Part shown: positions 1-45,148 of the stretch, in pieces | How positions within the stretch are numbered: the stretch's first letter is position 1 | Layout: each line of letters starts with the position of its first letter | DNA from: Candidatus Omnitrophota bacterium | Lineage (GTDB): Bacteria; Omnitrophota; Gorgyraeia; 1-14-0-20-64-10; JACQQZ01 | Direction of reading: 5' to 3' | NCBI GenBank assembly: GCA_016206635.1 | Contig: JACQRF010000059.1 | Span: 1 to 45,532 of the forward strand | DNA: 45,532 bases | Made by a program: the position numbers and the translations under genes | Notes under the pieces: model-generated | The model's input: the letters and a program-made list of their open reading frames with translations, nothing else | Told to the model about the DNA's origin: nothing | Databases searched by the model: none

Positions 1-142
1 CCACTACCCAATCGCGGCGTGGCCGGGTCGGCCGGGGCGTCTGAATGAGAGCGGTTATCACATGGTCCTTGGTGTTCCAGTTGACGAGGACCACCGACAC
101 GCGCGAGGCGGGATTAGCGGCGGCGTCGAAGGGGCCGGTCAT
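1..142 (-). CDS. Glycosyltransferase family 2 (GT-A), 5' fragment; the gene continues past the left edge
   Basis: Reading the minus strand from ATG 142..140 gives MTGPFDAAANPASRVSVVLVNWNTKDHVITALIQTPRP... The 'VSVVLVNWNT' strand is the classic opening of GT2 enzymes. It is absent from the ORF track because it is truncated. An alternative GTG start lies at 100. The ATG start overlaps the upstream stop (114) by 29 nt. Confidence 0.5.
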   Translation of the reverse strand, partial: MTGPFDAAANPASRVSVVLVNWNTKDHVITALIQTPRPTRPRRDWVV

Positions 143-5926: not shown

Positions 5927-7137
5927 GGGTGTACAGTGTATCGCACGGACGCGACCGGGACAAGTTGCGCTGACGCGCGGAGATGGGTGATCAACGCATC
6001 CACGAGCCGGCGCTTGTCATGCGCCTCGGCCCACGCCCGAGCGCGTCCGGCCATCTGCGCGTACCGCTCGGGGTTCCGGCACAGCGCTACCAGGGCCTCG
6101 GCCATGGCCGCCGGCGTGTCGGCAACCACGCCTCCCCCGGCTTGCTGAAGCTCTTCGGCGGTGCCGGAGACTCGGTTGGCCACGACCGGCAGCCCGCAGG
6201 CGGCGTACTCCCAAATCTTCATCGAATCACAGTAGTGGCTCCACGCAGAGTCCTCGGCGTACCAGGCAACCCCGATCCAGCTGGACGCCGCCAGCGCCAG
6301 CGCGCGCGGCTGCGGCAGGAACCCGGTGGCGCGGACGGCGTCGTCGAGGCGCTTGGCCTGGATTTGCCGCGCCAACCGTTCGGCTTCCTCGGGGGTCAGA
6401 AACCCTCCGATAATCCGCAGGGTCAATTGAGGGATCGTTTGCCGCGCCAGGCGGAGACTTTCCAGCACCGGCTCCACGCCGACCCAGGGAGAAAGGGAGC
6501 CGGCCATCATCACGATTGATGCTGGCTGCCGCTCGCCGATTGGCTGGACGGTCATCTCGCCGGTGACGGGGGAGTTGGGAAACCGCAGAACGCGCCGGGC
6601 ATCGAGGCCTGGGATCGCCTGCAGGTACTCCATGATCCGCTGAGAGACCGCCGTGACAACGCGGGCGCGCCGCGCGACGAAGCGGAACAGGCGCAGGTAG
6701 AGCGCGTCCAGCCAGGGCTGCCCGAACCGCCGGGTTGAAAAATCGGCGATGTGGAATGCGAACGCTTGGACCACGCCGAGGCGCTGCAATCCCCACCCCG
6801 CGACGGCATTCAGCGGGTCGGCGCACAGGGCGACGGCCCGCGGAGACGGCGCGAACGCGCGCCGGACGGCCCAAACCGTCCACGCCGGTTCCAGCGTCCA
6901 GCGCAGCAGGGGCCATCGGCACCACGCTAGCCCCTGAAGGACCGGGCGCTCAGCGCCGCCATCGCGGTAACGGAGCGATGACGGGCCGCAGGCGTCCAAC
7001 GGATGCTCTACGATCCCCAACCGCCATCCCTGTCCGGCCAGCAGGTCCAGCACGCGATCGAGGCCGCCGGGTTTTGGCTGCGAGTCAATCAGGACGCGGT
7101 GGATCACGACGACCGCATCGTAGCGCCACGGCGTCAT
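5923..7137 (-). CDS. GT-B fold glycosyltransferase (GT4/GT1-like)
   Basis: The C-terminal half carries the retaining GT-B signature region ...MKIWEYAACGLPVVANRVSGTAEEL... ATG 7137 forms an ATGA overlap with the upstream stop at 7134. Confidence 0.75.
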   Translation of the reverse strand: MTPWRYDAVVVIHRVLIDSQPKPGGLDRVLDLLAGQGWRLGIVEHPLDACGPSSLRYRDGGAERPVLQGLAWCRWPLLRWTLEPAWTVWAVRRAFAPSPRAVALCADPLNAVAGWGLQRLGVVQAFAFHIADFSTRRFGQPWLDALYLRLFRFVARRARVVTAVSQRIMEYLQAIPGLDARRVLRFPNSPVTGEMTVQPIGERQPASIVMMAGSLSPWVGVEPVLESLRLARQTIPQLTLRIIGGFLTPEEAERLARQIQAKRLDDAVRATGFLPQPRALALAASSWIGVAWYAEDSAWSHYCDSMKIWEYAACGLPVVANRVSGTAEELQQAGGGVVADTPAAMAEALVALCRNPERYAQMAGRARAWAEAHDKRRLVDALITHLRASAQLVPVASVRYTVHP

Positions 7138-10100
7138 GGAGGGCCGGGGCGGCGAGGTCTCTGCCGGTGCGGCGCCAGCAGGAGGAGGACGCATCCCAAC
7201 AGGGTGACGGCGGAGAGACCCGCGGCGCGTCGGAAGCGGGTTTGAATCGTGTAGCGCAGGTCCAGGCGCTGCGGCGGCGCCAGCGTGGGTACCCACCAGG
7301 CATTCGAGAACCCGTCGGCTTCCCAGTGCGCCTCCATGGCGATGGATTGCGTGTCGAACCGCGTGGTCAGCTCCCAGGCCGGATGATAGGCGTCACGGAG
7401 GACCAGGAATGCCCCGGTGGGTTCCGCGCGGACCACCTCGGCACGATAGGAGGTCGCGGAGTCCTTCGAGGCCGCCAGCGGCATCGGCGGCGCCGGGGGC
7501 TTCGCCGTGCTCGCCACTTGGATGCACGCCGAGCGGGCGATCGGCGTGTCGATCGTGAGGATGCAATGGCCGGGGTCGAGCGTCAACGGCTGAGCCGTCG
7601 TCCATCCCCATGGGGTTTTGGTCATCACGAGCGCTTGTTGACCAAGACGCAGCTGGGGGGGAGACGGGTCAAGGCCGGCCATCGCGATGAGCTGGATGCC
7701 GTACTGGTCGCGGCGCGGGATGTACACGGCCACGCTCCGCACGGCCTGCCCGACCTGGACCGGGCTCACCAAGAATGTCCCGCTGAGATACCGGCCGTCC
7801 GACCCCAGGATTGGGCTGGCGGTCGCCGTGGACGGCGTGTACAGCTCGACCGGCGTCAGGCCGGGATTGACTATGAGGTCATCGACCACGACCGGCTGTG
7901 CTTTCGAGCCGACGGCGTGCAGGACGCGCATGGGCGACGGCGGCGCGCCGACATTCAGCGTGAGATCCCGTTCGATCCCCGGCGACAGCACGCGGAACGA
8001 CATCGCGCAGCGCACCGGGCCGGGCGCGTCATTCACCAGATACCAGTGCGGCCCGCCGCCGATGATCGCCCGCCACGGATCGGCCCCCGGTGACCCCAGC
8101 GGCAAACGCGCGGCGGTATCGGCCATAGTCACCATCGGAGCGGACTGGGGGTCCGGCTCCAGCGTGGTTTCCATAATGTCGGGAGAGAAGATCCAACGCA
8201 GCGCATGATCGGGCGCTTGCCACCAAGGGATCCAGTCCGCCATTCGGGCGGCCAGCTCATCCACCGGCACGACCATGATGGTCGTGGGGGGCGCGTTCCA
8301 GGCAGAGAACCCGACGGCGTTGACGGTATGCGTCCCGCGCGAGAGGTGGTAGACCCCGTAATTCCGCCACCCCTCGGCCGGTGGGAACCACGGCTCGGAC
8401 CCCTGGACCGCGACGATCCGATCGTCCACGAGCAGCTGCAGCGGCATGGCCGATCCGGCATCGAGGTAGCGCGCGGCCCCCACGAAGTAATCTTTCGAGA
8501 CCGGCACGAAGAATGTCTGCCGATGGTTCTGAACGATCGGCACACGGATGATGCCTTCGACCTGTTGCAGCAGCGTGTCGCCGGCCTGCGCGTTGAACCA
8601 CGTGATGCCGGTGATCGGGAGCTGGTCATAGCGGGCCGGGTCTATGGCCTGCGCTTTCAGGAAGACCGGCGCGGTGGAGAGCGCCCCCTGGGTCGCGAGC
8701 GGCAGCATCGCTTCCAGCGACCCGGTCAGCAACTCGGTGGTCGGAACCAACTCCACGTGAGGGGCCGGGTTCCCATCTACTTCGTAAAATGCCCAGTGGC
8801 CGAAAGTGCGGCTCAGGCGGACCCCTCGGCAGGCGCGCAGTCTCGCTTCGAGCTGCTCGGCGGCGTCCGACCGGCCCGCGAGGTCCCGAGTGCTGTCGCG
8901 GCGGACCAGCAGGTACCGGACGCCGAGGCGGTGCGCGATCTGCGCCACGGGGGTGGCATCGCCCCGGAGTAGCCCATCCGTCATGAGCTGTCGCAGCAGT
9001 TGGTCGCCGTGCTCCAGGTACCGGGTGTCCGCCATCGGCGAGGCGAACAGCACGGACCGATCGCTCAGATAATTCAAGAGATGGAGCGTGGAGGCGAATC
9101 CCCAGGTATAGCTGTCGGACGATTGCTCCGGCAGCGACAGGATGCGCCCCGGTTTCGCGTCGCGCGCCAGCCAGGCGGCCGCCTCGTACACATAGGCGGG
9201 CACCGAAATTTTCAGAGAGCTCAGCACGGTCGGGTCGTGACGCGGAAAGATTGCGCCGGTCAGCATCGGGAACCCGGCCATCACGACCGCGCCGGCGCAC
9301 CCGCCGATCAGCCATCGCCGGCGCGCGGGCCAGCGACGGCACAGTTCGCGGACCGTGACGCTCACGAGGCAGGCGTACAAAATGACCAGCGCGAGGCCGA
9401 ATTTATAGAACGGCGAGCGAAACGCCGCGAACCCAGGGATGTGATGGGCCAGCCACAGATACACCCCTCCGGTCGGCGGATGCGCCCCGCAGGCCAGGAC
9501 CGTCATGAAGGCGGCCATCACCGCGCACCACCGTGTGTGAAAATCCCGTGTCAGCAACACCGCTCCATAGGCGGCCACCGGCAGCGCCACGCCGACGCCG
9601 AGCAGCAGCGGGTTGCGGAAGTAGTGCATCGCATACGCCACGTACGGCTCGCTGCCGGCCCCCTCATACCAATCCCACAGGCCTTGCAGGCGCATCACGT
9701 TAAACAGGCTGGTGTGGCGGCTGATCCCTTCCAGCCAGTTATCCATCCCGACCGTTCCCAGATTGCTTAGTGCCGCCACGCCCGTATGCTGGACGCCGAA
9801 GCGGGTCGCCGTCTCGAGGAACAATGGCCACCACCAGAAGGCGGAGCAGGCCACGACGACCGGCAGGCCCCACCCCACGGTCGCGGCCACTCGCCCAACG
9901 CCTTGGCGTCCCGCCGTTCGCCACTGATGCACCACCGAACAGGCCGTATAGCTACCGACGACCAGGAGCACCATGCCGAGAATCGGCGGGGAGCCCCACT
10001 CCGAGGCGAAGACGGCGATCAGCCCCAGCCCGGCGGCCGCGCGCCGCGGGGCGACGAGACCATGGAACGCCAGAATGAGCACGGCCAGGACCAGGGGAAG

Positions 10101-10559
10101 GCCGACCCCGGCGGACAGCTCTCCGGCCTTGCCCCCCTCCCAGACGTTGAACATCACGGGGTTGTAGGTGTAGATCAGGGCGGCGATCACCCCGGCCGCC
10201 GGCATCATCGGTTCCCGGCGGGCCCGTTGGAGCGCCCACACGAGACCGTAGGCGGACGCCGCCAAGCCCATGAACCACAGCACGTACGTGATCCGCTGGA
10301 CATTGAGCAGCGACGCCCCAGATCGGGCCACCAGGGCCTGGATTCCATGATAGATGAGCGACGTGGCGTAAATGGCGGATGGGCTGCCGGCGCCGAGCCG
10401 GTGGTCCCATACGTTCAGCCGGTTGAGGAAGAATCCGCCAGGGTCCAGCGGGAACACGTGGTCCCCGCCGGTGACCAGCGTGCCGTCCACGAACCACAAT
10501 AACGGCGTGAGACCAATCAGAAAGATCCAGAAGCCGCCGCGCCGGATCAGCGCGCTCAC
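7134..10559 (-). CDS. Giant polytopic GT-C-like membrane glycosyltransferase, AftD/DUF3367-like (paralog 1, 1141 aa)
   Basis: N-terminal TM followed by an acidic loop, TGGDHVFPLDPGGFFLNRLNVWDHRLGAG. Many TM segments. Motifs MRLQGLWDWYEG..PY, GAHPP...LWLAHHIPGFAAFRSPFYKF and GVRYLLVRRD, then a long extracytoplasmic C-terminal region. GTG 10559 forms a GTGA overlap with the upstream stop at 10556. The ORF-track extension to 11024 lies inside the upstream GT2. Confidence 0.65.
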   Translation of the reverse strand: MSALIRRGGFWIFLIGLTPLLWFVDGTLVTGGDHVFPLDPGGFFLNRLNVWDHRLGAGSPSAIYATSLIYHGIQALVARSGASLLNVQRITYVLWFMGLAASAYGLVWALQRARREPMMPAAGVIAALIYTYNPVMFNVWEGGKAGELSAGVGLPLVLAVLILAFHGLVAPRRAAAGLGLIAVFASEWGSPPILGMVLLVVGSYTACSVVHQWRTAGRQGVGRVAATVGWGLPVVVACSAFWWWPLFLETATRFGVQHTGVAALSNLGTVGMDNWLEGISRHTSLFNVMRLQGLWDWYEGAGSEPYVAYAMHYFRNPLLLGVGVALPVAAYGAVLLTRDFHTRWCAVMAAFMTVLACGAHPPTGGVYLWLAHHIPGFAAFRSPFYKFGLALVILYACLVSVTVRELCRRWPARRRWLIGGCAGAVVMAGFPMLTGAIFPRHDPTVLSSLKISVPAYVYEAAAWLARDAKPGRILSLPEQSSDSYTWGFASTLHLLNYLSDRSVLFASPMADTRYLEHGDQLLRQLMTDGLLRGDATPVAQIAHRLGVRYLLVRRDSTRDLAGRSDAAEQLEARLRACRGVRLSRTFGHWAFYEVDGNPAPHVELVPTTELLTGSLEAMLPLATQGALSTAPVFLKAQAIDPARYDQLPITGITWFNAQAGDTLLQQVEGIIRVPIVQNHRQTFFVPVSKDYFVGAARYLDAGSAMPLQLLVDDRIVAVQGSEPWFPPAEGWRNYGVYHLSRGTHTVNAVGFSAWNAPPTTIMVVPVDELAARMADWIPWWQAPDHALRWIFSPDIMETTLEPDPQSAPMVTMADTAARLPLGSPGADPWRAIIGGGPHWYLVNDAPGPVRCAMSFRVLSPGIERDLTLNVGAPPSPMRVLHAVGSKAQPVVVDDLIVNPGLTPVELYTPSTATASPILGSDGRYLSGTFLVSPVQVGQAVRSVAVYIPRRDQYGIQLIAMAGLDPSPPQLRLGQQALVMTKTPWGWTTAQPLTLDPGHCILTIDTPIARSACIQVASTAKPPAPPMPLAASKDSATSYRAEVVRAEPTGAFLVLRDAYHPAWELTTRFDTQSIAMEAHWEADGFSNAWWVPTLAPPQRLDLRYTIQTRFRRAAGLSAVTLLGCVLLLLAPHRQRPRRPGPP

Positions 10560-11599
10560 GAACGCTTCTCCTCGGCCTTCACATACCAGAGCAGGCCGCC
10601 CCGCCAGGCCCGATCCCAGGTTGCGGGACGCAGGAACGGCTGGAGGATTTGCCGATCCGAGCGCCGGCGGATCTGCCGTTGCACGATGCGGCGTTTCCGC
10701 CACGTGGCCGCGAGGTGCCGGACATTCCACCACCAGGCGCGGCCAATCGCGCCGGCCCGCCCGAGTTTTCCGCACAACAGCGCGGCTGCCGCAAGCGCGG
10801 CGGTCAGCGTCCCATTGACGAGCAAGACGTAACAGAGCAGCGGCCCGCCCAGATTCTTGAGGTACATCGCGAACCGGTTTTTGTGGGAGTGGAATTGGAT
10901 GACACTGAACGGCAAGGTCCGAGTCGTCGTATGCCCCACTCGGTGCTCCATGCCGGCCCCGGGAACCAGCACGATACGGAACCCGGCCAACTGGATCCGC
11001 CACGCCAGATCGGTTTCCTCGCAATATGCGAAGAATGCATCGTCAAACCCCCCGACCCGCTCGAACACGTCGCGGCGAACCAGCAGGCAGGCCCCTTTGG
11101 GGCTGAAGATCTCCACGACGGCGCGCGGATCGGTCCCGACGTCGCGCCCCCTGTGCCCGTCATGCTGGAGGAACCCGGTCCAGGTGGGAAACTCGCCGAG
11201 AGAGTCCAGCTCGCCAGGCCGACCCATCCAAAAGATTTTCGGCTGGCACGAGCCGATCGTCGGGTCCGCTTCCAATGGGGCCACCAGCCGTTCCAAGAGG
11301 TCCGGCGGCACGGTCGTGTCATCGTTCAGAAAGAGGAGATAGCGTCCTCGGGCGATGCGAGCCCCTTGATTGGCGGCCGGCGCGAACCCGAGATTCTCTG
11401 TGTTGCGGATCAACCGGATATCCGGCCGGCAGCGGGCCGCCCATTCCGCGGTGCCGTCGTGGGAACCATTATCCACCAAGATCACCTCGAACGACGGCCC
11501 GCTCAACCGCGCCACAGTCTCCACACAAGTCTGGAGCATCCCGAGATCGTCGAGGTGCGCGATAATAATGGACACGTCCGGCGGCGGCTCAGTAACCAA
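10556..11599 (-). CDS. GT2 glycosyltransferase (WbbL/rhamnosyltransferase-like architecture) with a hydrophobic C-terminal extension
   Basis: VSIIIAHLDD, FEVILVDNGSHDGT, NLGFAPAANQG, LFLNDDT (DxD), CEETDLAWR. Paralog of 37713..38729. The start is uncertain: the track start at 11599 is TTG, and GTG at 11575 is an alternative. Confidence 0.8.
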   Translation of the reverse strand: MVTEPPPDVSIIIAHLDDLGMLQTCVETVARLSGPSFEVILVDNGSHDGTAEWAARCRPDIRLIRNTENLGFAPAANQGARIARGRYLLFLNDDTTVPPDLLERLVAPLEADPTIGSCQPKIFWMGRPGELDSLGEFPTWTGFLQHDGHRGRDVGTDPRAVVEIFSPKGACLLVRRDVFERVGGFDDAFFAYCEETDLAWRIQLAGFRIVLVPGAGMEHRVGHTTTRTLPFSVIQFHSHKNRFAMYLKNLGGPLLCYVLLVNGTLTAALAAAALLCGKLGRAGAIGRAWWWNVRHLAATWRKRRIVQRQIRRRSDRQILQPFLRPATWDRAWRGGLLWYVKAEEKRS

Positions 11600-13319
11600 T
11601 GGCTACCTGATAAAGGGTTGCGTCGTCGAACCGGCCGATGAGCTCCCAGCCGTTCTGCAACGTCAAGGTCGGTGGCGTTCTCGGTTCCCATGCGTGACGG
11701 TTCGGCACGTGATAGGTCACACCGAAGAGGGAGATGACAGCGGGAGCAGCGCTGATTGGCCGAGCGTACCATGCCGGGTGGACGATAATGTACCGTACCC
11801 CCGCGGCCGCAAGTTGGCGACGCACTGCCGGGCTGCCGGGGTCCGCCCAGGCGCGATCCGGAAGCGGCCCATCGTTCAATAGCGGCTTGCGGTGGAGGCG
11901 AGACCAAAACATGTACTCGGCATGTACATCGGTATCGATCCCGCGCCACGGATATTCCACGACGGTGCCCCCACCCGGTTCCTGGGCCAACCAGGCATAG
12001 ACGGGCGGGACCCGCGACACGTCCCGTACCTGCAGGCCCGGTAGGAACTCGATCAAGATCACCCCACCGAGCCCCCATGCGATCGCCCGATGGACCCACA
12101 CGCGTCGGATCGGCTCCAGCAATGCCCTGACACCAAACGCGGCGAGCACGGCCGCGGCGAGCATTACAACGAGCCCGAATCGCGCGTAGACCCTCAGCCA
12201 CGGCAGGAGGTGCTGCAGGAGGAACGACGGGAAATACACCTTGGCGGGCGCGACGACGGTATTGTTGATGATCTGAAATGATCCGAGCGGCACGAATGGC
12301 GGCGCCGAGCACAGCAAGGCGATGACGCTGGCCCCGGCCATCCATCGGATGACGCGCGCCTCCTGCGGCGTCCGGGCGCCGCGGAACAGTCCGACGACGG
12401 CCAGCGCGATGACGCCGTAGCCGAGAAACAGCGTTTGCTCCACCACATTGCTGCCGTACCAATGGGATCGAACGAATGGCGCCACGGCATCGCCCCACCA
12501 CGGATGATACGGCGACGGCGCCAAGTAATCCCACGGTTTCGCCGAGTACACGAAGAGGTCCTTCAGCCCCCACGTCAGCGTCAGCGGATGGACGCCGCCG
12601 GGCCTGAGTCCAGACCACAGGACGGCGAGGCCTGCCGCGCCGGTGACGCCGAGGAGGCCCAGCCACCCGCGCCGGCGCGCCGGGTCAGGCCACGCGAGCC
12701 CCGCGCCCAGCACGCCCAGCAGCAGGAACGTGAACAATCCATAATGTGGATTCCAGGAGCCCGCCCAGACCGCGAGACCCGCGCACGCCAGCCAGCGCCC
12801 GCGGCTCGGCCGCTCCACCCAACGCCACAGGCTCCACGGAATCAGCGGCAGCCATTGGATCGACGCCAAGCTCAATTGGGTCGTGTGGGCGAAATGATAA
12901 GGACAGAAGGCATACGCCACGCCGGCCACCACGCTGGCGGCCCGGTCGCCGGTGAGCGACCGGCACAGCAGATACATGCTCAAGCCGGCCATGGGGAAGC
13001 TTAGCCATAGGAGGAGATTGTAGGCGAAGACCTCGTGCATCGCGACGCTCAACGCCAGGAGACACACTTCCAGCATCGGCTCAAGCCCCCACATCCAGGC
13101 CGGAGCGATCAGACTCTGATGAGGGGCCACCCAAGCTTGTTGATGCATCCACACGTTGACGATCCCAAACATCGCGTCGCCCGGGCTGCCGTAATAGACC
13201 AGGACGCGGCCGAGATTCCACCCCAGCGGGGCGGTCATCCACCAGGCGAGGCCTGCGAAGAGCGCGATGAGGCCGAGCGGCCATTTCCAAGCGGCGGCTG
13301 CCGCGTTAGCGCGTGGCAT
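11589..13319 (-). CDS. Polytopic membrane protein, GT-C-like (YfhO/ArnT-superfamily-like) with a C-terminal extracytoplasmic domain
   Basis: At least 10 predicted hydrophobic segments. Motifs GSPGDAMFGIVNVWMHQQAW, AYAFCPYHFAHTTQLSLASIQWLPL and C-terminal GVRYIIVHPAWY. ATG 13319 overlaps the upstream stop (13306) by 14 nt. The function call is tentative. Confidence 0.55.
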   Translation of the reverse strand: MPRANAAAAAWKWPLGLIALFAGLAWWMTAPLGWNLGRVLVYYGSPGDAMFGIVNVWMHQQAWVAPHQSLIAPAWMWGLEPMLEVCLLALSVAMHEVFAYNLLLWLSFPMAGLSMYLLCRSLTGDRAASVVAGVAYAFCPYHFAHTTQLSLASIQWLPLIPWSLWRWVERPSRGRWLACAGLAVWAGSWNPHYGLFTFLLLGVLGAGLAWPDPARRRGWLGLLGVTGAAGLAVLWSGLRPGGVHPLTLTWGLKDLFVYSAKPWDYLAPSPYHPWWGDAVAPFVRSHWYGSNVVEQTLFLGYGVIALAVVGLFRGARTPQEARVIRWMAGASVIALLCSAPPFVPLGSFQIINNTVVAPAKVYFPSFLLQHLLPWLRVYARFGLVVMLAAAVLAAFGVRALLEPIRRVWVHRAIAWGLGGVILIEFLPGLQVRDVSRVPPVYAWLAQEPGGGTVVEYPWRGIDTDVHAEYMFWSRLHRKPLLNDGPLPDRAWADPGSPAVRRQLAAAGVRYIIVHPAWYARPISAAPAVISLFGVTYHVPNRHAWEPRTPPTLTLQNGWELIGRFDDATLYQVAIGY

Positions 13320-14631
13320 CGTGTTCGGTGGACATCTCGTCTCCATCGCGCAAGGCCCGCCACGCATACAGGGTGACACTGATCAGGATGGCTACCCATG
13401 CGGCGTCTTCGAATGGTGTCGCCCATGCTGTCCATCGCAGCCAGCGGCTCAGCCAGGAAGCGGCCAGCAACCACGCAAAGATCGTCAGATACCCGGACGC
13501 CGATTGGCGCCGCCACACCCACCGCAGGAACGCCAACAGCGCGATGGGGATCGCCCGGCTGATGATCCACCACGCGGCGCGCGCGATCGCCAGCGCCGCC
13601 CGCCGCGCCAGCCACCGCATCACGCCCCAGACGATCCCTGCGCCCTCGCGTACGCGACGCCAGCCGATCCTGCGCGAGTCGGCCATTGCTGTGCGAGCGC
13701 CTCGGAAACCCTTCGGGGCGCTGAGCTGCCGTCCCACCACCAGGGAGTCGTACCATTTCGGGAACGCGGTTCGGCACCGACGGATGAAGCTGAGGAGGCC
13801 CCGAATGACGAGCACGACCATTGCGAACGTCCCGACCAGGCCGCCCCATAGCGCGAGGGGAAGCCGCAGCGACCAACCCGACAGCAGGACGATGCGGTAT
13901 TCGGTCACCCACGACAGTCCGTGCAGCATCATCAGCGCGATGCCGGCGACCCACGCCACCCCGCCAGCCGCCGGCGCCGCCAGCGCCCAGCCCAGGAGGC
14001 GCGCCGCCGCGAGCGTCCCGGCCATCCACGCGCCGAGCAAGAGCCCCCAACGACAGAGCCAGGCGGCGACCGGCGCCGAGATCCGGCGCTCTGAGGGATC
14101 TTGGAATAGCAGATACCCCGCCCGCTCCACAATCGGCGCCCGGTAGTTGGTCAGCTTGATTTGCTCGTGCCGCACAGTCTTCGGCGTCCCGCTGTTCAGG
14201 AAGGTCACGACGTTATCGCCGGGCCGCGTGACGCCGGCGGGCACCTGGACGAGAAACTTCTCGGCGCGGCCGCCGTGGGCGCCGTGGACGGTGGTGAGCC
14301 GCTCACCGTTCCAGTGGATCTCCGCCGCTTGCCCGCCGGCGCCGAACGCCAGTTTCATCTTGGCCACGTACGACCCGCGGCGCGGCAGCGGGACGACGAC
14401 TTGCACTGGGCCGCCACGGTCCATCACGTCCACGACCGCCGGGTATTTGGGGTTGCGCACCAGAATCTCAGCCCCAGAGACCGACGATTCAGCCACGGCG
14501 CGCCGGGACAGATCGAGCTCCGAGACCCATGGGGTGAAACCGGAGGGGGCGTCCAATCCCACGGCGGCGTACGCGCCGATCGCCGCCGCCGCGGCCAACC
14601 CGGCCCACCACCGCCACGTCATCGCGCCCAT
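13306..14631 (-). CDS. Uncharacterised membrane protein: signal anchor, beta-rich extracytoplasmic domain and multi-TM/basic region; stand-alone paralog of the C-terminal module of 863..3091
   Basis: MGAMTWRWWAGLAAAAAIGAYAAVGLDAPSGFTPWVSELD..., IHWNGERLTTV, DNVVTFLNSG...IKLTNYRA, FLRWVWRRQ. All of these align with aa ~355-690 of the GT2 fusion protein. ATG 14631 lies 1 nt after the upstream stop (14633). An alternative ATG lies at 14622. Confidence 0.75.
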   Translation of the reverse strand: MGAMTWRWWAGLAAAAAIGAYAAVGLDAPSGFTPWVSELDLSRRAVAESSVSGAEILVRNPKYPAVVDVMDRGGPVQVVVPLPRRGSYVAKMKLAFGAGGQAAEIHWNGERLTTVHGAHGGRAEKFLVQVPAGVTRPGDNVVTFLNSGTPKTVRHEQIKLTNYRAPIVERAGYLLFQDPSERRISAPVAAWLCRWGLLLGAWMAGTLAAARLLGWALAAPAAGGVAWVAGIALMMLHGLSWVTEYRIVLLSGWSLRLPLALWGGLVGTFAMVVLVIRGLLSFIRRCRTAFPKWYDSLVVGRQLSAPKGFRGARTAMADSRRIGWRRVREGAGIVWGVMRWLARRAALAIARAAWWIISRAIPIALLAFLRWVWRRQSASGYLTIFAWLLAASWLSRWLRWTAWATPFEDAAWVAILISVTLYAWRALRDGDEMSTEHDATR

Positions 14632-14632
14632 G

Positions 14633-17010: not shown

Positions 17011-17039
17011 GCGCTGTGCCTCGCTAGACATAGCTTGTG

Positions 17040-17048
17040 ATTGTAACA
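17040..17048 (-). promoter_or_regulatory. Candidate extended -10 promoter element (TGTTACAAT) in the only sizeable intergenic gap
   Basis: The minus-strand gap reads ctgaacgtccccttccggccgTGTTACAATcacaagctATG... It is locally AT-rich in an otherwise GC-rich window. No convincing -35 element. The element lies 8 nt upstream of ATG 17031. Confidence 0.25.
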
Positions 17049-17069
17049 CGGCCGGAAGGGGACGTTCAG

Positions 17070-21431: not shown

Positions 21432-21434
21432 GCG

Positions 21435-30129: not shown

Positions 30130-31642
30130 GGAGGAGACAATAGCGATCGGCGCGGTGGATGACCTGGGCCTCGGCTAGTTGCAGCTCCGCGAGCGTGACG
30201 AACTTCTCATTGACCAACACGTAATTCACCCGGAACTGGGCGATAATATCCGAGAGCGGTTTGGTGAGGCGCGGCCACAAGCCGGGGTAACGGGTATTGT
30301 GCGCGTGCGAGTTGTCCGTGGACACGACGCGGGCGCGCGTGAAGTACATCACGGCATCGGCCAAGTAGGTCGGCATGGTCAGCAGCCGAATCTCGCCGGG
30401 GAGGCCGTTCAGGTGATCGAAGATCCGCCGGAGGGCCGGCGTCACGGACCGTTCGGTGTCGTTGAGGACCACCACGCGCTGCAGGGCGATGGCCGGCGCC
30501 AACCCGCCGAGCAGCAATACTGCGGGGAGTCCCCACGCGATGCCGGATGCGGCCGGGGACGTCCACGCGCTCAGGAAGACCGTGGCGCCGACCACGGCCG
30601 CCGGGGCATTGGCGTACTCCAGGTACCGTTCCCCCTCTCCCAAAAATCGAATCGGGGGGATTTGTCGAATAGCCACGCCGGCGACCCAGAGCGTTCCCGC
30701 CCAGACGGCGCACCACGCGATCAGCCATGACGGCAATCCCCCGCCCTCCCACACCCCTCGCCACATCAACCATCCGTAGGCCCCCAACACGCAGGGGAGC
30801 GCCGGATGGGCGGCGACGACCGCCATGGCCGGCAGCCGGCGAATCGCCTGGTAGAGACGAAAGACGGGATCCGGGTCCTTCTGATGAGGGGGTGGAAAGC
30901 CGCGGACTTGATGGGCGAATCGGTTTCGAATATTCGCGCGCCAACAGCGCAGCATCGCGAGGTGGCCCGAGAGAACTCGGCGGTACGCCCCCCCAGACAG
31001 CAGCAGGGCCACGCCGCCGCCGGCCGCCAGGTACGCCAGCGGCCACCAGGAACGGCTGAGGAGCGCCATCACCAGGACCAAGACCACGATCGCCTGAATC
31101 GCCAAGCGATGCGTCAGCAAGAGCACTCCCAGCATGGCCGCGGCGATCGCCATCCATCCCCACTGCCCCGTTCCCAGAAATCCTATGAGGGGAAACACGG
31201 AGAGGCTGAAGAGGAGTGACGACAGGGGGCGGGTGGTGAGACTGGCATTCTCCATAACCACCAGGGGACTGAGGCTGTAACATGCCTGGGCCGCGACGGC
31301 CACGGCCAGCCGGCCGGTCATCGCATACACTAGGCCGAACACCAGGCCGTGGTGGCACGCATCGGTCATGGCGGAGGCGCACCACTGGCTTCGTTCAGCC
31401 ACCGGTTTCGGCAACCATGCGAGGAGCACTCGCAACACCGGCGGATAATCCGATGGGGCGTCAATCAGATAATGCTCGGGCATCGTGTCAAACACCCGGC
31501 CCGTGCGGCGAATATGGTCGGCCGCGGCGAGGTGGCGCCACGTGTCCACGCCGAACCAGCGATTCCGCCACCGCGGCCATGTTTGGAGGATGGCGCTCAT
31601 TGCGACCCCTGCCAGACCGATCCCCCAACCGACAATCGTCAT
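30122..31642 (-). CDS. Polytopic membrane protein with a C-terminal soluble domain; GT-C-like or O-antigen-polymerase-like (ArnT-role candidate)
   Basis: MTIVGWGIGLAGVAM..., FGVDTWRHLAAADHIRRTG in the first loop, about 11 hydrophobic segments, and C-terminal FRVNYVLVNEKF. ATGA overlap at 31639/31642. Function is uncertain. Confidence 0.5.
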   Translation of the reverse strand: MTIVGWGIGLAGVAMSAILQTWPRWRNRWFGVDTWRHLAAADHIRRTGRVFDTMPEHYLIDAPSDYPPVLRVLLAWLPKPVAERSQWCASAMTDACHHGLVFGLVYAMTGRLAVAVAAQACYSLSPLVVMENASLTTRPLSSLLFSLSVFPLIGFLGTGQWGWMAIAAAMLGVLLLTHRLAIQAIVVLVLVMALLSRSWWPLAYLAAGGGVALLLSGGAYRRVLSGHLAMLRCWRANIRNRFAHQVRGFPPPHQKDPDPVFRLYQAIRRLPAMAVVAAHPALPCVLGAYGWLMWRGVWEGGGLPSWLIAWCAVWAGTLWVAGVAIRQIPPIRFLGEGERYLEYANAPAAVVGATVFLSAWTSPAASGIAWGLPAVLLLGGLAPAIALQRVVVLNDTERSVTPALRRIFDHLNGLPGEIRLLTMPTYLADAVMYFTRARVVSTDNSHAHNTRYPGLWPRLTKPLSDIIAQFRVNYVLVNEKFVTLAELQLAEAQVIHRADRYCLLHV

Positions 31643-32157
31643 GGCTGCGCCGCGGCCAGCGCGTCCACCAGCACAGTCGAATAGAGCGGATAGAGCCGAT
31701 TGTAGATCTCCACCGGGGTTCGGCATCCTCGTGCATCGACGAATTGTTCAGCGAGCACCGGCCCGCCGTCCACGACCTCGGTCATTCGATGCGCACCGAC
31801 GGAAGCCCGCGTCCCGCCGGCCGCTAAGAACCGTTCCACCGCGCGGGCCCCGGGATACCCGGACAGGCACGGGTGCAAGTTCACGCAACCGAGCCGTGGC
31901 AGCGCCAAGAGCAGCGGCCGGAAAATCTCCGGGCCGTGGCAGCAAACCAGCAGATCCGGCCGCAGCGCCCGAAGCCGTTCCAGGGAGTCCGGCGCGTTGA
32001 TCGACACCGGCCGTGCCGCCGGCAACCCCAGCCGCTCGGCCAGCCCGGCGACCAGCTCATCCGCCGGGATGACGAGCGGCACGGCATGGCCTTTCGCCAG
32101 CAGCGTCAGCAGGGCGATGCAGCCGGCTTGCCGGGCGCCATAGAACACGATCGTCAT
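31639..32157 (-). CDS. Minimal formyltransferase (Formyl_trans_N core only; sugar N-formyltransferase / ArnA N-domain-like)
   Basis: 172 aa. VNLHPCLSGYPGARAVERF...GAHRMTEVVDGGPVLAEQ aligns with the NxH...D catalytic pattern (compare NLHGSLLPKYRG...HRM...DAG in ArnA/Fmt). No C-terminal domain. ATGA overlap at 32154/32157. Confidence 0.7.
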   Translation of the reverse strand: MTIVFYGARQAGCIALLTLLAKGHAVPLVIPADELVAGLAERLGLPAARPVSINAPDSLERLRALRPDLLVCCHGPEIFRPLLLALPRLGCVNLHPCLSGYPGARAVERFLAAGGTRASVGAHRMTEVVDGGPVLAEQFVDARGCRTPVEIYNRLYPLYSTVLVDALAAAQP

Positions 32158-32843
32158 GCCGGCCTCCGGGCGATCACGAAGAGGTCACGAAACCCTCGCG
32201 GCACAGCATACTCCCGATGCAGCCATCGCTTCACCAGGTCCAGTTTGTAGAGATTCGTCCCGAAGAGGTATTTCGCCAGATAGAAGCACGGGATGCTGAG
32301 CACCGCCCGCCATCCACCTCGCGCTTCCAGAGACTCTACTTCGAATCCGGCGCGCTGCAGGAGATCGCGCACGTCATATTCCCGAAAATGTCGATGTCCG
32401 ACCGTCCAGTGGGCGACATCCCCCACCGCGTGGAGCCAATGCCGCCGCGGCACCAGAATCGCCACGCGGCCGCCGGGGCGCAGCACGCGACGGACCTCCT
32501 GCAAGGTCTGACGATCACTCCCGGGATCGAGGTGCTCCAACACATAGTTCATCAAGGCCAGGTGAAACTGCCCGTCACGGAACGGCAGGGTCTGGATATT
32601 CCCGACCACAAACCGGCCCCGCCTCTGCCGGGCCAGGCGCACCGCCTGCCACTCGCGGTCCACGCCGAAGGCCTTCGACGGCCCCTCTAACAACGATTCA
32701 AACGCCCCGGTCCAACAGCCCACATCCAGCAGCCGCCCGTCCGCCAGATAGGGCCGGCACACGTGATAGGCCAGCTCGTGATACAGGTCGGGCCGGCTGT
32801 CTTCAAACCGCGGCAAGTACCGTAGCGGCCGTTGCGTCCTCAT
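32154..32843 (-). CDS. Class I SAM-dependent methyltransferase
   Basis: Motif I LLDVGCWTGAFE, then LALMNYVLEHL and LRPGGRVAILVP. ATGA overlap at 32840/32843. Confidence 0.8.
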   Translation of the reverse strand: MRTQRPLRYLPRFEDSRPDLYHELAYHVCRPYLADGRLLDVGCWTGAFESLLEGPSKAFGVDREWQAVRLARQRRGRFVVGNIQTLPFRDGQFHLALMNYVLEHLDPGSDRQTLQEVRRVLRPGGRVAILVPRRHWLHAVGDVAHWTVGHRHFREYDVRDLLQRAGFEVESLEARGGWRAVLSIPCFYLAKYLFGTNLYKLDLVKRWLHREYAVPRGFRDLFVIARRPA

Positions 32844-35800
32844 CGAGATCTCCGGTGGGGGAGCCGGACAAGACCCACGAGGAGTGTCACCACGGCAACG
32901 GCCGCGACGCCGGATGAAATCCGCAACCCTCGCTCAAACAAGTCTTGAAGGGCAAACCGGAACGTGACCAGCGTGGCGCCGACGCGATCCAGGTAATAGC
33001 CGTTAGCAAACCCATTCACCAGAAAATGCGGCAGCCGCCGAAGACGGCCGGTCGCCGGGTCGCGGGCCCTCGCCTCCCACGCCGGATGGTACGATTCGTT
33101 GAACACCAACAGGCAAGGCCCTTGGCTGACGACCGACGCCTCGACGTCGGTCGGGGCGCGCCGCGTGAACGTGACGGTGGCCGGCGCCGGCGCGCGCGCC
33201 GCGCCGGGTTGCGAACAGTGCAGGAAGTAGCGCGTCCCCACTGCGGCATGCTGGATGCGCACGGTATGGGGACCCGCTGCCGGCGCGGTGATTGATCCGA
33301 CGAATCCCGCGCGCGGCGAATCGTACCGCAGGGGAATCGGCTGGCCGTCCAGGGAGACGGCCAGTGGTTCTGGGAGATCCGTAGGCCACGGCGCCGGATG
33401 GAGTTGGAACCGGTACGCGCCGGCCCGCGGGAGATCGATGACGGCCGCCAACGTCAACGTGCCCACCCGCACGTCGTCGCCTAACGCGTAGGTGACATTC
33501 TCGCCGCCGCGGAGCACCGCGGCATGCGGGGTCGCAAAACTGAGGACATTGCGGCCCGGCGCCAATGTCACCGATCGCAGCAAGACCACGCTCGGCTGAT
33601 CCGGATGGATGCGCTCGGCCCGCAGGCGCGTCCCGTTGAGGAACAGTTCGACGTCCCGTTCGATGCGATACGTGGCAATCGGCACCTGAATGTTCGTGGT
33701 CAGGGAACGGCCCGTCAGGTTATCCAGGTGCGCGCGCGGCTGGCCGCTCACGGCGTATGTTTGCCAACGCCATCGGGTCCTGTCCGGCCACGTCTCGAGA
33801 GGCCCCAACGCCGGCCACTCCGCAACCCGGCAGACCGTTGGCGGCAGCCGGCCCTCCGTCAGATCTTCGGTGAAGGAGTCCGGCGTCACGAACACGGTCA
33901 GGCCGGTTGTCTCGGCCTGTAATGCGGTTGCGGCGGCCGCCTCGAGCGAGGCGCCGTTATACACGACGACCTGGTGGATCGGCAACGAGACGGCGGTGGC
34001 GCGCGACGCCTCGGCGGGGAAGACCAGCGCCCCGGCCCCATCGAGGTGCTCCGTCAGCGCCATCGGCAGCATGCCGCTGCGGACCCCGGGTTCTTCGGAG
34101 ATATCGCTGCGCCCTTTCACTTGAAGGGGGACCAGCGTCGGGTGCGCCCCAACAATCTCCACGAGCCGATCGGCGGCGTAGACGAGGGGACGGCTGTTGG
34201 AGACGGCGTAGACGGTCCGGGGGCCGACGGTTTCCACCGGGGTAATCCCGGTTTGATCGCGCAGCCGCTGTCGGATAAACGCGGGGTCGTCATCCCGGGT
34301 CTCAAAGTAATCGTGGGCGATGTCGTCTTCCTGCAGGAGGTACTGCACGCCGAGCAACCGCAGGAGCGTGACGGCCTCCGGCGTCACCCGATCATACAGC
34401 GCGGCGTAAAACTCTTCGGCCAATCGGTTGCCGTAATCAGCGGCGAACCATGAAAACGAGCTGAACAAAAATGACGCATCGGTAAAGTAATAGAGGATCG
34501 GGACCGGCCCGGAAAATCCCCAGCGATAGACGCTCGCCCCGTTGACGCGGTACGGCAGGCAGAGGAACCTGGCATTGGGGGCCGTCCGGTTAATCCACGC
34601 CGCCGCCTGCATCACCGGTTCCGGGATGATCGCGTGAGACGGCGTCACCTCTCGTCGTTCGGACGGTTTGGGAAACATGCGCCCCAAGACCAGGGGATGC
34701 GCGTAGACGGTATGCGCGACGATCAATACCGCCGCGACGGCGAACGCCGCCGCGGTGCCGGCCCTCCGGTCGCCGATCCGCGCCCGCCACCACGGCTGGA
34801 CCCACCGGCTGATCGTGCCGGCGCCCAATCCGCCGAGGATCGCGTACCCGATGCTGGTCAGCAACGTGAATTTGAACCACGGGCTCCGGACAATCCAAAA
34901 CAACGGGAGGTGCTGCGCGCACCAGAGATACAGCGGGCGAAACGGCGGGTGGGTCCCCGTAGACAGCACCAGCCCGATGACCATGGTGAAAGCGCTATAA
35001 CCCACCAGCCATCCGCGCGTGGTCAAGCAGCCGATCAGGGCCAGCGCCGCCGGGAACCAGCTCAATGCGATGAAGGCGGGATGGGATCGGTACCACTCGG
35101 CGTACGTGACGTATGGTTCCTTCCACCCTTGGAACCACGTCCAATCCCCCTGCATCCGGAGCACATTCTGGAGACTGGTATTGGTGCTGATCCCCTCCAG
35201 CCATCCCGCCGTCCATCCTTTAATGTCGGCGATCGCCGTGTCGGCGATCCGCATGTTGGCCGCCACCGCCTGCGGCAACATCCAGAACGCATTGCACCCG
35301 AACCCGATCGCCCCGGCGATCCCAAAGAACGCGAGGCAGCGGATGGGCGAGCCCTCCGGCGTCCCGCGGTGCGCCACGAGATAGCAGCCAATCAAGATGA
35401 GCAGTCCTAGCACAAAAACGTATGACTGAGCGAAATTGACGCCGATGCCGGCCCCGGCGCCGGCGAGCAGCCCCAGCGCCACGGCGTAGAACCCCCAGGC
35501 CCGCGCGGCACGGAGCCCTCGGACGATTAACAGGATGACCCATGGAAACACCGCGTAGGCGATCAGCGCCGATTGCCCGCCGGGCCATTGCGAGGCCAGC
35601 GCCAGGTTGAACATGTACAGGTGGGTCGCTACGAGGCGAGCGGCCCAGCTCTTCGACACGTACACCATCAAGGTATACATGGAGAGTCCCGGCAGCAGGA
35701 ACCACGCCACGAACTCGATCCGCTGCGCCCAGAAGAGCGATCCCGTCATCCAGTTCGTGATCGCCGGGATCAGATACGGCACCAAGGTCGGCAGACTGAT

Positions 35801-35995
35801 GCTCCACTCCGCGCCGGTCCCCCATTGGCTCTTCCAGGTGGTGGCGATGGCCAGCCATCGCGCCATGCCGATCGGCATCTCGAGGTCCGTGGTATGGATG
35901 AAATGCCCCGGCAGAAACCAGAGCAGCGGGACAGCGCCCCACGCCCCGATCAGGGCCACTACCCAACAATGCCCTCGCCATCGGCCATCCTTCAT
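32840..35995 (-). CDS. AftD/DUF3367-like GT-C membrane glycosyltransferase (paralog 3, 1051 aa)
   Basis: MKDGRWRGHCWVVALIGAWGAVPLLWF, HTTDLEMPIGMARW..TWKSQWGTG, VLRMQGDWTWFQGWKEPY, TGTHPPFRPLYLWCAQHLPLFWIVRSPWFKF, GVQYLLQEDD, a long C-terminal domain and a terminal TM. ATGA overlap at 35992/35995. The ORF-track extension to 36448 is discarded. Confidence 0.65.
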   Translation of the reverse strand: MKDGRWRGHCWVVALIGAWGAVPLLWFLPGHFIHTTDLEMPIGMARWLAIATTWKSQWGTGAEWSISLPTLVPYLIPAITNWMTGSLFWAQRIEFVAWFLLPGLSMYTLMVYVSKSWAARLVATHLYMFNLALASQWPGGQSALIAYAVFPWVILLIVRGLRAARAWGFYAVALGLLAGAGAGIGVNFAQSYVFVLGLLILIGCYLVAHRGTPEGSPIRCLAFFGIAGAIGFGCNAFWMLPQAVAANMRIADTAIADIKGWTAGWLEGISTNTSLQNVLRMQGDWTWFQGWKEPYVTYAEWYRSHPAFIALSWFPAALALIGCLTTRGWLVGYSAFTMVIGLVLSTGTHPPFRPLYLWCAQHLPLFWIVRSPWFKFTLLTSIGYAILGGLGAGTISRWVQPWWRARIGDRRAGTAAAFAVAAVLIVAHTVYAHPLVLGRMFPKPSERREVTPSHAIIPEPVMQAAAWINRTAPNARFLCLPYRVNGASVYRWGFSGPVPILYYFTDASFLFSSFSWFAADYGNRLAEEFYAALYDRVTPEAVTLLRLLGVQYLLQEDDIAHDYFETRDDDPAFIRQRLRDQTGITPVETVGPRTVYAVSNSRPLVYAADRLVEIVGAHPTLVPLQVKGRSDISEEPGVRSGMLPMALTEHLDGAGALVFPAEASRATAVSLPIHQVVVYNGASLEAAAATALQAETTGLTVFVTPDSFTEDLTEGRLPPTVCRVAEWPALGPLETWPDRTRWRWQTYAVSGQPRAHLDNLTGRSLTTNIQVPIATYRIERDVELFLNGTRLRAERIHPDQPSVVLLRSVTLAPGRNVLSFATPHAAVLRGGENVTYALGDDVRVGTLTLAAVIDLPRAGAYRFQLHPAPWPTDLPEPLAVSLDGQPIPLRYDSPRAGFVGSITAPAAGPHTVRIQHAAVGTRYFLHCSQPGAARAPAPATVTFTRRAPTDVEASVVSQGPCLLVFNESYHPAWEARARDPATGRLRRLPHFLVNGFANGYYLDRVGATLVTFRFALQDLFERGLRISSGVAAVAVVTLLVGLVRLPHRRSR

Positions 35996-45137: not shown

Positions 45138-45148
45138 TGCCGATCGCC

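Follow-up and report, generated by a model that had tools for sequence, protein, structure and literature searches.

A putative envelope-glycan operon with six predicted AftD- and YfhO-related GT-C glycosyltransferases in an uncultured bacterium

Six membrane glycosyltransferase candidates in one operon

The 45,532-bp contig JACQRF010000059.1, analysed here over its whole length (the window), belongs to an NCBI metagenome-assembled genome (MAG) labelled "Candidatus Omnitrophica bacterium" (locus tags HY600_021xx). From homology and fold, together with conserved residues, the order of domains and the gene neighbourhood, we consider it probable that the 31 genes scanned form one envelope-glycan operon joining cytoplasmic and periplasmic assembly. 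Its periplasmic part would involve six GT-C candidates: three giant AftD-like proteins (A, B and C), two YfhO-like proteins (Y1 and Y2, the latter encoded as Y2N and Y2C) and a shorter relative (P1). They are accompanied by a further polytopic membrane protein, P2; the other operon genes carry g numbers, apart from two designated U1 and U2. The open reading frames (ORFs) named in a preliminary description of this DNA all exist, on the minus strand, at the coordinates given here, and every motif that it quoted is present (GGDHVFPLDP, KTSDIRLP, HTTDLEMP, LQGLWDW.., GxHPP..RSPxYKF and the VRYLL-type hexamers).

7134-10559, minus strand: A, giant AftD-like GT-C protein, 1141 aa (Pfam PF11847; paralogy with B and C)
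27499-30129, minus strand: B, AftD-like GT-C protein, 876 aa (AlphaFold 2 model and Foldseek; invariant D36)
32840-35995, minus strand: C, giant AftD-like GT-C protein, 1051 aa (BLASTP to A and B; member of alignment A4)
25055-27502, minus strand: Y1, divergent YfhO-family GT-C protein, 815 aa (PF09586 annotation, colinear alignment, hhalign)
15826-17010, minus strand: Y2N, half with the membrane (GT-C) part of the second YfhO-like paralog (41% identity with residues 3-374 of Y1)
14633-15829, minus strand: Y2C, half with a transmembrane (TM) helix, a periplasmic domain and a C-terminal TM part (43% identical to Y1 residues 456-812)
11589-13319, minus strand: P1, short AftD/YfhO-superfamily GT-C protein, 576 aa (hhalign; invariant D48)
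30122-31642, minus strand: P2, conserved polytopic membrane protein, 506 aa (sub-threshold PMT_2 match; own family)

The contig has a G+C content of 67%, and the minus strand carries every credible gene, with a G+C content at third codon positions (GC3) of about 0.8. At many gene junctions, starts and stops overlap by 4-8 nucleotides (for example 10559/10556, 27502/27499, 30129/30122, 31642/31639, 32843/32840 and 35995/35992). Because of the single strand, the uniform GC3 and these overlaps, one translationally coupled operon of about 31 genes is a reasonable reading. Operon genes are cut by both contig ends (positions 1-113 and 45149-45532), so the cluster exceeds the window; one of the cut genes is the N-terminus of a further GT2 (VSVVLVNWNTKD), and the other is the C-terminus of a short-chain dehydrogenase/reductase (SDR) that resembles dTDP-glucose dehydratase or UDP-xylose synthase.

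Three giant proteins related to AftD

As had been proposed from the motifs, BLASTP marks A, B and C as paralogs far beyond chance (A versus B, E 2e-59; A versus C, E 6e-45; B versus C, E 1e-73), each pair sharing about 30% identity across the N-terminal ~650 residues and a second, weaker match in the C-terminal part. Judged from hydropathy, A would consist of an N-terminal domain of about 11 TM helices, a periplasmic domain, a beta-rich C-terminal region and a C-terminal TM anchor. It passes the Pfam family GT-C_AftD (PF11847, DUF3367) with 27.8-28.0 bits for a cutoff of 26 over residues 37-589; B and C alone gave no PF11847 match in the Pfam scan, and searches of PDB sequences with A, B and C singly (phmmer) or with a 6-sequence profile returned nothing significant in the first case and nothing at all in the second. 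The profile needed to reach a solved structure was that of alignment A4, comprising 34 sampled members of the AftD-like family with C among them, 24 of which match PF11847 (best E 4.6e-27). It finds M. abscessus AftD (6WBX/6W98, deposited as "DUF3367 domain-containing protein") with E 2.9e-27 in three colinear stretches, namely the TM domain from the loop-1 motif ("gDldlP" versus "TKLDLAINP", in the K39/D41 region), the periplasmic domain ("nvrYlllrnD" versus "GISYLVVRND") and the C-terminal beta domain with the TM anchor.

The AlphaFold 2 (AF2) model of B (predicted local distance difference test score, pLDDT, 68.8; predicted template-modelling score, pTM, 0.64) begins with about 11 TM helices, which are followed by a periplasmic domain of alpha/beta type, by a beta-sandwich region and finally by one C-terminal TM helix; this predicted order fits that of AftD (TM, periplasmic alpha/beta, beta domains, C-terminal TM). 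When the model is compared with the PDB by Foldseek, the best match is AftD (6w98/6wby, E 1e-13, TMq 0.59-0.61), and all three AftD entries (6w98, 6wby, 6wbx) stand at the top with E 1e-13 to 4e-11 and TMq 0.56-0.61, at 12-13% sequence identity in the fold alignment. They are followed by the entry of a translocon complex containing an oligosaccharyltransferase (9n9j, fourth) and then by the C-mannosyltransferase DPY19.

Mutagenesis of AftD has established K39, D41, E251, K361 and D474 as essential (bioRxiv 10.1101/2019.12.22.885152). The loop-1 Asp (D36 in B) is kept in 33/33 aligned members of the AftD-like family, and the hidden Markov model (HMM) alignment puts it at most 2 residues from K39/D41, while the Arg and Lys of the RSPxYKF motif are kept in all 34. 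By profile, fold match and paralogy, A, B and C are assigned to the AftD/DUF3367 family of GT-C proteins, which bears out the likeness noticed in the preliminary description. The Glu of a "WLEG" motif was considered as counterpart of AftD E251 and rejected, being present in only 12 of the 34 members.

YfhO-like proteins, P1 and a shared hexamer

BLASTP aligns Y1 with the two halves of Y2 at 41-43% identity (E 2e-68 and 6e-81). In hmmscan, Y1 reaches 24.8 bits with YfhO (PF09586), below the cutoff of 28.5 and over the C-terminal end only, and Y2C gives a weak match to the C-terminus of the same profile (21.4 bits, cutoff 28.5). PF09586 is also the precomputed Pfam annotation of Y1 and is carried by nearly all of its 57 database relatives; furthermore, the membrane and C-terminal domains of Y1 are colinear with YfhO proteins, and it is 27-30% identical to the N-terminal domains of PF09586 proteins over ~365-420 residues. 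An NCBIfam scan of the seven candidates, P2 included, gave no match except a negligible PgfM2 tail for Y1 (E 0.006). Based on their PF09586 relatives and mutual identity, Y1 and Y2 are classed as YfhO-like paralogs, the second of them in split form, as had been described.

Y2 consists of two ORFs in which the TGA stop at 15826-15828 overlaps the ATG at 15829 (ATGA), and the break falls where a short non-hydrophobic segment separates the last TM helix of Y2N from the first one of Y2C. Homologous residues are all retained on both sides. Natural gene fission and a sequencing frameshift could account equally well for this break, and Y2 may, instead of being a pseudogene, make up a natural GT-C of two subunits. 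Within the YfhO family, the loop-1 Asp column holds Asp in 21/28 sequences; the corresponding region reads FGEG in Y1 (residues 32-34) and FGES in Y2N.

Profile-profile comparison by hhalign connects the YfhO-like and AftD-like families with a probability of 99.9% (E 7.9e-34, 671 columns). The P1 family (28 sequences) aligns with the YfhO-like family with the same probability (E 1.6e-31, 508 columns) and with the AftD-like family at 99.3% (E 1.7e-20). Its members match YfhO, PTPS_related, PMT_2 and DUF6541, the first-loop D48 of P1 is invariant (28/28), and the only match of its profile among PDB sequences is an oligosaccharyltransferase chain (8i9p, E 0.0013). In terms of sequence, P1 is therefore placed as a shorter member of the AftD/YfhO GT-C superfamily.

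All seven candidates had been said to carry the same hexamer. The regular expression as first written occurs in five (A, C, Y1, P1 and P2) and in none of the other 26 proteins, for 0.12 matches expected by shuffling and a maximum of 2 in 500 shuffles; B (VRYLVQ) and Y2 (ARYLLA) each differ from it at a single position. In six of the seven, the hexamer lies within the regions aligned profile to profile, and it also aligns with "ISYLVV" of AftD. As the VRYLL strand is aligned in all three family comparisons, the shared hexamer is a homologous feature of the periplasmic GT-C domain.

Putative donor synthases and an Arn-like set of sugar genes

21435-22394, minus strand: g15, ArnC/GtrB-type polyprenyl-phosphate sugar synthase-like GT2 with two C-terminal TM helices (NCBIfam)
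18671-19549, minus strand: g13, AglJ/dolichyl-phosphate-hexose-transferase-like GT2 with two C-terminal TM helices (NCBIfam)
114-866, minus strand: g01, short PgfS/ArnC/PpgS-like GT2, 250 aa, no TM hairpin (NCBIfam)
22387-23358, minus strand: g16, SDR resembling UDP-4-keto-pentose/UDP-xylose synthase and the ArnA C-terminal domain (NCBIfam)
42631-43800, minus strand: g29, DegT-family aminotransferase, best match ArnB (Pfam, NCBIfam)
31639-32157, minus strand: g21, formyltransferase domain, best match ArnA N-terminal domain (Pfam, NCBIfam)

Three GT2 enzymes had been described as polyprenyl-phosphate sugar synthase-like, and these are indeed the families to which their sequences are most similar. 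In NCBIfam, g15 matches ArnC over its full length (E 4.5e-62) and PgfS (E 2.4e-42), with a TM hairpin at residues 241-281; g13 matches AglJ over its full length (E 2e-29) and DPhHxTase (E 2.6e-23), its TM helices being placed by hydropathy; and g01 covers almost the whole profile of PgfS (E 2.6e-19), ArnC (E 3.9e-17) and PpgS (E 7.9e-14). All these matches are below the equivalog cutoffs. The two C-terminal TM helices of g15 and g13 are a further likeness to GtrB and ArnC. The N-terminal domain of the double GT-A protein g24, missed by Pfam, is 30% identical to g01 (E 2e-25) and may be a fourth domain of this kind, while the remaining operon GT2s (g08, g25 and the C-terminal domain of g24) match MftF, EpsD and PgaC-type enzymes instead.

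These matches also bear on the target of the pathway. PgfS is among the best NCBIfam matches of g01 and g15, the weak PgfM2 tail is the only NCBIfam match of Y1, and g13 resembles AglJ, an enzyme of archaeal S-layer glycosylation; the operon could thus modify a protein (S-layer, adhesins or pili) in the manner of Streptococcus mutans PgfS/PgfM1/PgfM2 or of PMT-type O-mannosylation. We hold this to be very unlikely, given that the Pgf and AglJ scores are far below the equivalog cutoffs, that nucleotide-sugar genes, polymer-type glycosyltransferases and a Wzx flippase are typical of a polysaccharide locus, that a locus with a P1 homolog carries lipopolysaccharide (LPS)-type genes (Bac_transf, Wzy_C+GT9), and that none of the window genes encodes a candidate target protein.

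Four genes dispersed across the operon (g16, g15, g21 and g29) recall the Arn pathway. g16 matches PRK11908 (UDP-4-keto-pentose/UDP-xylose synthase, E 1.5e-52) and the C-terminal domain of ArnA (E 7.7e-46), g29 is a DegT protein in Pfam (E 8e-115) with ArnB (E 1.2e-70) and PseC (E 1.6e-68) as NCBIfam matches, and g21 matches Formyl_trans_N in Pfam and ArnA in NCBIfam (E 5.7e-13). By homology, this set probably implies a lipid-linked 4-amino- or 4-formamido-4-deoxy-pentose donor, or a relative of it. As the preliminary description had stated, a decaprenyl-phospho-arabinose pathway is not seen among the 31 genes scanned, which hold neither a UbiA-type decaprenylphosphoryl-5-phosphoribose (DPPR) synthase nor a DprE1/E2-like gene.

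P2, a conserved membrane protein beside an Arn-like SDR

P2 had been counted as a seventh GT-C enzyme. Its sole family match is PMT_2 over TM helices 3-6, with 20.9 bits for a cutoff of 26.1, and this match recurs in none of the 19 other members scanned (Pfam scan, n=20). Relatives were collected (40 or more) and a 20-sequence alignment was built, the profile of which gives hhalign probabilities of about 3-4% with the P1 and YfhO-like families, the two compared; a value of 47% with the YfhO-like family, obtained with a 4-sequence profile, is treated as noise, falling to 2.6% with the better 20-sequence profile. Searches of PDB sequences with the single sequence and the profiles returned nothing relevant (best E 0.15, an unrelated NDUFB9 chain), a first metagenome scan with the single protein returned no relatives, and its single-sequence AF2 model has a pLDDT of 41.8. 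No Pfam model exists for the family, and these searches gave it no structural relative. Since P2 shows no significant GT-C similarity in these comparisons, the firm count of GT-C proteins is six (A, B, C, Y1, Y2 and P1).

The family is well conserved in its own right, with an invariant D33 after TM1, a YPP motif, R138, H178, Q183 and GEGERY; the Tyr of the hexamer is not conserved among P2 homologs. P2 homologs directly adjoin a g16-type SDR (52-64% identical) in most of the 40 or more loci, often near genes for ArnC-like (58-61% identity) and g01-like (65-66% identity) GT2s, and have as other neighbours an AsnB-type amidotransferase, a DegT aminotransferase, a formyltransferase and AftD-like genes. 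The P2-g16 pair is conserved in more than 12 metagenomic loci (L003, L004, L009-L019 and L027 are among the P2 loci).

It is possible that P2 is an ArnT-like transferase or a donor flippase. That it is not a glycosyltransferase at all, and instead a flippase or another membrane component (acyl- or carbamoyl-handling) for the Arn-like lipid-linked sugar, is a serious possibility to which we give somewhat less than an even chance: the 20-sequence profile has no significant similarity to a GT-C family or a solved structure, the window lacks a small flippase of GtrA or ArnE/F type, and P2 shows a tight genetic linkage with the g16 SDR, in many cases also with ArnC-like genes. The weak PMT_2 match, the invariant Asp after TM1 and YPP motif, and a GT-C-like outline of about 11 TM helices followed by a C-terminal soluble domain point the other way, none of them being decisive.

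A proposed pathway across the membrane

The remaining genes on which the proposed pathway draws are the following.

863-3148, minus strand: g02, GT2 fused to a C-terminal membrane/periplasmic region (Pfam GT2; TM helices by hydropathy)
5923-7137, minus strand: g06, cytoplasmic GT4 (Pfam Glycos_transf_1 and related GT4 families)
10556-11599, minus strand: g08, cytoplasmic GT2, 38% identical to g25 (Pfam, NCBIfam)
35992-37692, minus strand: g24, double GT-A protein (Pfam GT2 at residues 396-660 of the long ORF)
37713-39838, minus strand: g25 (GT2) and g26 (GT4), cytoplasmic glycosyltransferases (Pfam)
43776-45148, minus strand: g30, Wzx/MOP-type flippase (Pfam Polysacc_synt, 32.6 bits for a cutoff of 28.2; at least 9 TM helices)
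23382-25154, minus strand: g17, NodU-type carbamoyltransferase (Pfam Carbam_trans_N and Carbam_trans_C)

In the cytoplasm, g02, g06, g08, g24, g25 and g26 would use modified nucleotide sugars to assemble an oligosaccharide on a lipid carrier; the genes point to amino, acetamido, amidated, methylated, carbamoylated and formylated forms. Such tailoring could be the task of a UDP-GlcNAc 3-dehydrogenase-like oxidoreductase, a NeuD-type acetyltransferase, two AsnB-type amidotransferases, two methyltransferases and g17, all encoded in the operon. The Wzx-type flippase would carry the oligosaccharide, or lipid-linked donors, across the membrane, while single sugars would be loaded onto polyprenyl phosphate by g01, g13 and g15, perhaps also by the N-terminal domain of g24; one donor would probably be a 4-amino- or 4-formamido-4-deoxy-pentose made via the decarboxylase-type SDR g16, g29, g21 and g15. 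In the periplasm, the six AftD/YfhO-superfamily proteins (A, B, C, Y1, split Y2 and P1) would add sugars onto the glycan, each by means of a loop-1 acidic residue at the membrane/periplasm interface, and would presumably differ in linkage or acceptor specificity. From its conserved gene neighbourhood alone, P2 might act as transferase or flippase of the Arn-like donor. In this scheme we infer the identity of the donors and acceptor, the order of the steps and the enzymatic activity of the operon proteins.

The preliminary description concluded that most of the glycan is assembled outside the membrane. This part does not stand, as the operon encodes at least six cytoplasmic GT-A/GT-B enzymes together with the Wzx flippase, and the gene content is roughly balanced between the two sides. 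These cytoplasmic enzymes, the flippase and the Arn-like amino-pentose set had been overlooked.

The flippase raises another alternative, in which one or more of A, B, C, P1 and P2 would be a polymerase or ligase moving polyprenyl-diphosphate repeat units en bloc, in the manner of oligosaccharyltransferases, Wzy or WaaL. Pfam and NCBIfam recognised neither Wzy nor WaaL nor a regulator of chain length among the 31 genes, en-bloc oligosaccharyltransferases belong to the GT-C superfamily, an oligosaccharyltransferase chain is the only PDB match of the P1 profile (8i9p), and a complex containing such an enzyme is the fourth fold match of B (9n9j). We nevertheless judge it improbable: AftD and YfhO, the closest characterised relatives, use polyprenyl-monophosphate monosaccharide donors, the three or four polyprenyl-phosphate-sugar synthase-like GT2s encoded alongside need consumers, and the contig ends on both sides of the operon, so that Wzy or WaaL may lie outside it.

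Several observations weigh against the joint cytoplasmic and periplasmic pathway that we favour. The system is known from the genes of an uncultured MAG alone. The model of B is only moderately confident, and its loop-1 segment has a pLDDT below 50, leaving the placement of the Asp in an active site structurally unsupported. The shared loop Asp of the preliminary description is conserved in the AftD-like and P1 families, but Y1, Y2 and their close relatives have a Gly at this column, with a Glu one residue earlier. Y2 is split and perhaps inactive, and the fold of P2, without detectable relative, leaves its GT-C status unsupported. All Arn-like matches are far below the equivalog cutoffs, indicating homologs and not equivalogs, so that the sugar may differ. 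Neither an ArnD-type deformylase nor a small flippase of ArnE/F type or GtrA (PF04138) is found among the window genes, Pfam scans of which give no polysaccharide deacetylase or SMR-type protein, and the abutting genes leave no space for an extra small flippase gene. Likewise, no priming phosphoglycosyltransferase, Wzy or WaaL was recognised by Pfam and NCBIfam in the 31 genes, which leaves the type of pathway undefined, and some of the GT-C-like proteins could fill these roles instead.

Comparison with known systems

No new principle is involved here, since synthesis from lipid-linked donors by GT-C transferases is well established (Gtr, CsbB/YfhO, Pgf, Arn, GT136 and mycobacterial arabinan); the GT-C proteins of the operon are new, divergent members of known families. 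A, B and C resemble AftD in their N-terminal TM GT-C domain with the loop-1 Asp, in the periplasmic GT-C domain with its VRYLL/"ISYLVV" strand, and in the beta-rich C-terminal region with TM anchor. They differ by being shorter (876-1141 aa versus ~1400 aa) and devoid of recognised carbohydrate-binding module (CBM) domains, by occurring as three paralogs in one operon of a host labelled as a Gram-negative candidate phylum, and by lacking a decaprenyl-phospho-arabinose pathway in the window.

In CsbB/YfhO-type systems, a GtrB-type GT2 makes an undecaprenyl-phosphate sugar and a YfhO-family GT-C transfers the sugar outside the membrane (reviews: PMC8035078, PMC5836110). Y1 and Y2 as YfhO relatives, and g15 and g01 as PgfS-like enzymes, link the operon with the teichoic-acid glycosylation systems YfhO/CsbB and GtlA/GtlB and with PgfS/PgfM1/PgfM2, from which it differs by the absence of a GtcA/GtrA flippase and of a teichoic-acid context; in addition, Y1 is below the Pfam cutoff, with Gly in the loop-1 column, and Y2 is split. 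Three-component periplasmic glycosylation of the Gtr/GT136 type combines a lipid-linked monosaccharide synthase, a flippase and a GT-C acting on a finished or growing glycan (PMC11127046). The same logic is recognisable in the operon, with six GT-Cs and three or four donor synthases instead of one each, GT-Cs of the AftD/YfhO clade, a Wzx/MOP protein instead of a small flippase, and no phosphoribosyl-pyrophosphate (PRPP)-dependent synthase.

The likeness to the Arn pathway, which serves the Ara4N modification of lipid A, resides in the best family matches of g16 (ArnA-C), g29 (ArnB), g21 (ArnA-N) and g15 (ArnC) and in a polytopic membrane protein, P2, genetically linked to Arn-like genes. However, the ArnA domains are on separate genes here, ArnD and ArnE/F were not found in the window, and P2 lacks detectable similarity to the sequence of a solved structure. 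With mycobacterial arabinan assembly (EmbA/B/C, AftA-D), the operon would share the use of several GT-Cs on one polymer, outside the cytoplasm and from a polyprenyl-phosphate sugar, whereas the donor chemistry differs, the GT-Cs come from one recently duplicated clade plus YfhO-like relatives, and everything stands in a single operon with cytoplasmic glycosyltransferases and a Wzx flippase.

The operon stands out by its density, as it unites three or four donor synthases with six GT-Cs that all belong to one superfamily. Also unusual are the P2 family, the repeated association with carbamoyl- and methyltransferases, and the presence of AftD relatives outside Actinobacteria, where no arabinose route accompanies them. 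In the literature found, experiments on AftD are confined to Corynebacteriales and those on YfhO mainly to Firmicutes; both clades occur together here. The locus thereby offers a compact gene set for studying how several GT-Cs divide labour on one polymer, and ties the conserved membrane protein P2 to an Arn-like sugar route. A much wider reading, which we put forward only tentatively and consider rather unlikely, is that multi-GT-C operons represent a widespread periplasmic pathway of uncultured Gram-negative bacteria, a non-actinobacterial counterpart of mycobacterial arabinan assembly in which several AftD/YfhO-type enzymes would use polyprenyl-phosphate sugars, an amino-pentose among them, to make a large, branched portion of an envelope polymer, P2 being a new class of transferase or flippase for the Arn-type donor.

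Related loci and spread of the families

An exhaustive HMMER census with a five-sequence AftD-like profile, counting representatives at 50% identity, retrieved 10,488 AftD-like proteins at E<=1e-3 and 2,040 at E<=1e-30. Some family members are 1,700-2,600 aa long. The relatives are mostly unnamed or automatically named "arabinofuranosyltransferase", distant members, one from the Patescibacteria group, bearing such names as "alpha-(1->3)-arabinofuranosyltransferase family protein" and "arabinofuranan 3-O-arabinosyltransferase". Because no arabinose-donor pathway accompanies the AftD-like genes here, this name is doubtful, and it is probably wrong for most of the relatives. The locus thus cautions against transferring the AftD annotation by homology, the name spreading beyond known arabinan makers. 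Literature searches, limited to open-access papers, found no paper on non-actinobacterial AftD-like proteins.

The co-occurrence of GT-C proteins with GtrB-like GT2s, for which the preliminary description had proposed a survey, was found at five related loci (L001-L005), with two to four GT-Cs, ArnC-like or g01-like GT2s, a carbamoyltransferase and methyltransferases. In L002, the genes for Wzx, a GT4 and a g24-like protein precede two AftD-like genes with a P2 homolog between them, after which come a U1 homolog and a carbamoyltransferase. L003 and L004, on contigs of Nitrospinaceae MAGs, have two or three AftD-like genes each, accompanied by P2, the g16 SDR, a carbamoyltransferase, methyltransferases and DegT. 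L005 gathers within 22 kb an ArnC-like gene (61% identity), AsnB, two YfhO-like and two AftD-like genes, a g01-like GT2, two carbamoyltransferases and two copies of U1 homologs. A sixth locus (L006) combines a P1 homolog with GtrA, short GT2s, MptA_B-like and PMT_2 proteins, a Bac_transf priming enzyme and Wzy_C+GT9, a setting that is LPS/O-antigen-like.

The carbamoyltransferase g17 is the best-conserved gene of this cluster type, its copies in related loci being 52-83% identical (83% in L001:3465-5123) and the gene being duplicated in L005:13606-17030, which suggests O-carbamoylated sugars as a hallmark of the product. In the set of species-representative genomes, the only relatives are two Nitrospinaceae MAGs, while the contig is labelled Ca. 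Omnitrophica, and its taxonomic assignment may be open to question.

Other genes of the operon

13306-14661, minus strand: U1, membrane-anchored protein, 451 aa (recurs in related loci)
17070-18701, minus strand: U2, soluble protein of ~540 aa (no family match)

U2 has no Pfam or NCBIfam match at any threshold tried. In L002, the g24 homolog, 943 aa in length, includes a fused GT4 in addition. U1, which likewise has no match in Pfam or NCBIfam, has an anchor at its N-terminus, then a region of beta type in the periplasm, and Trp/Arg-rich TM helices at its C-terminal end, and its homologs stand beside GT-C genes at L002:12579-13769, L005:5756-6967 and 21968-22417, L007:6350-7597 and L013:3732-4970.

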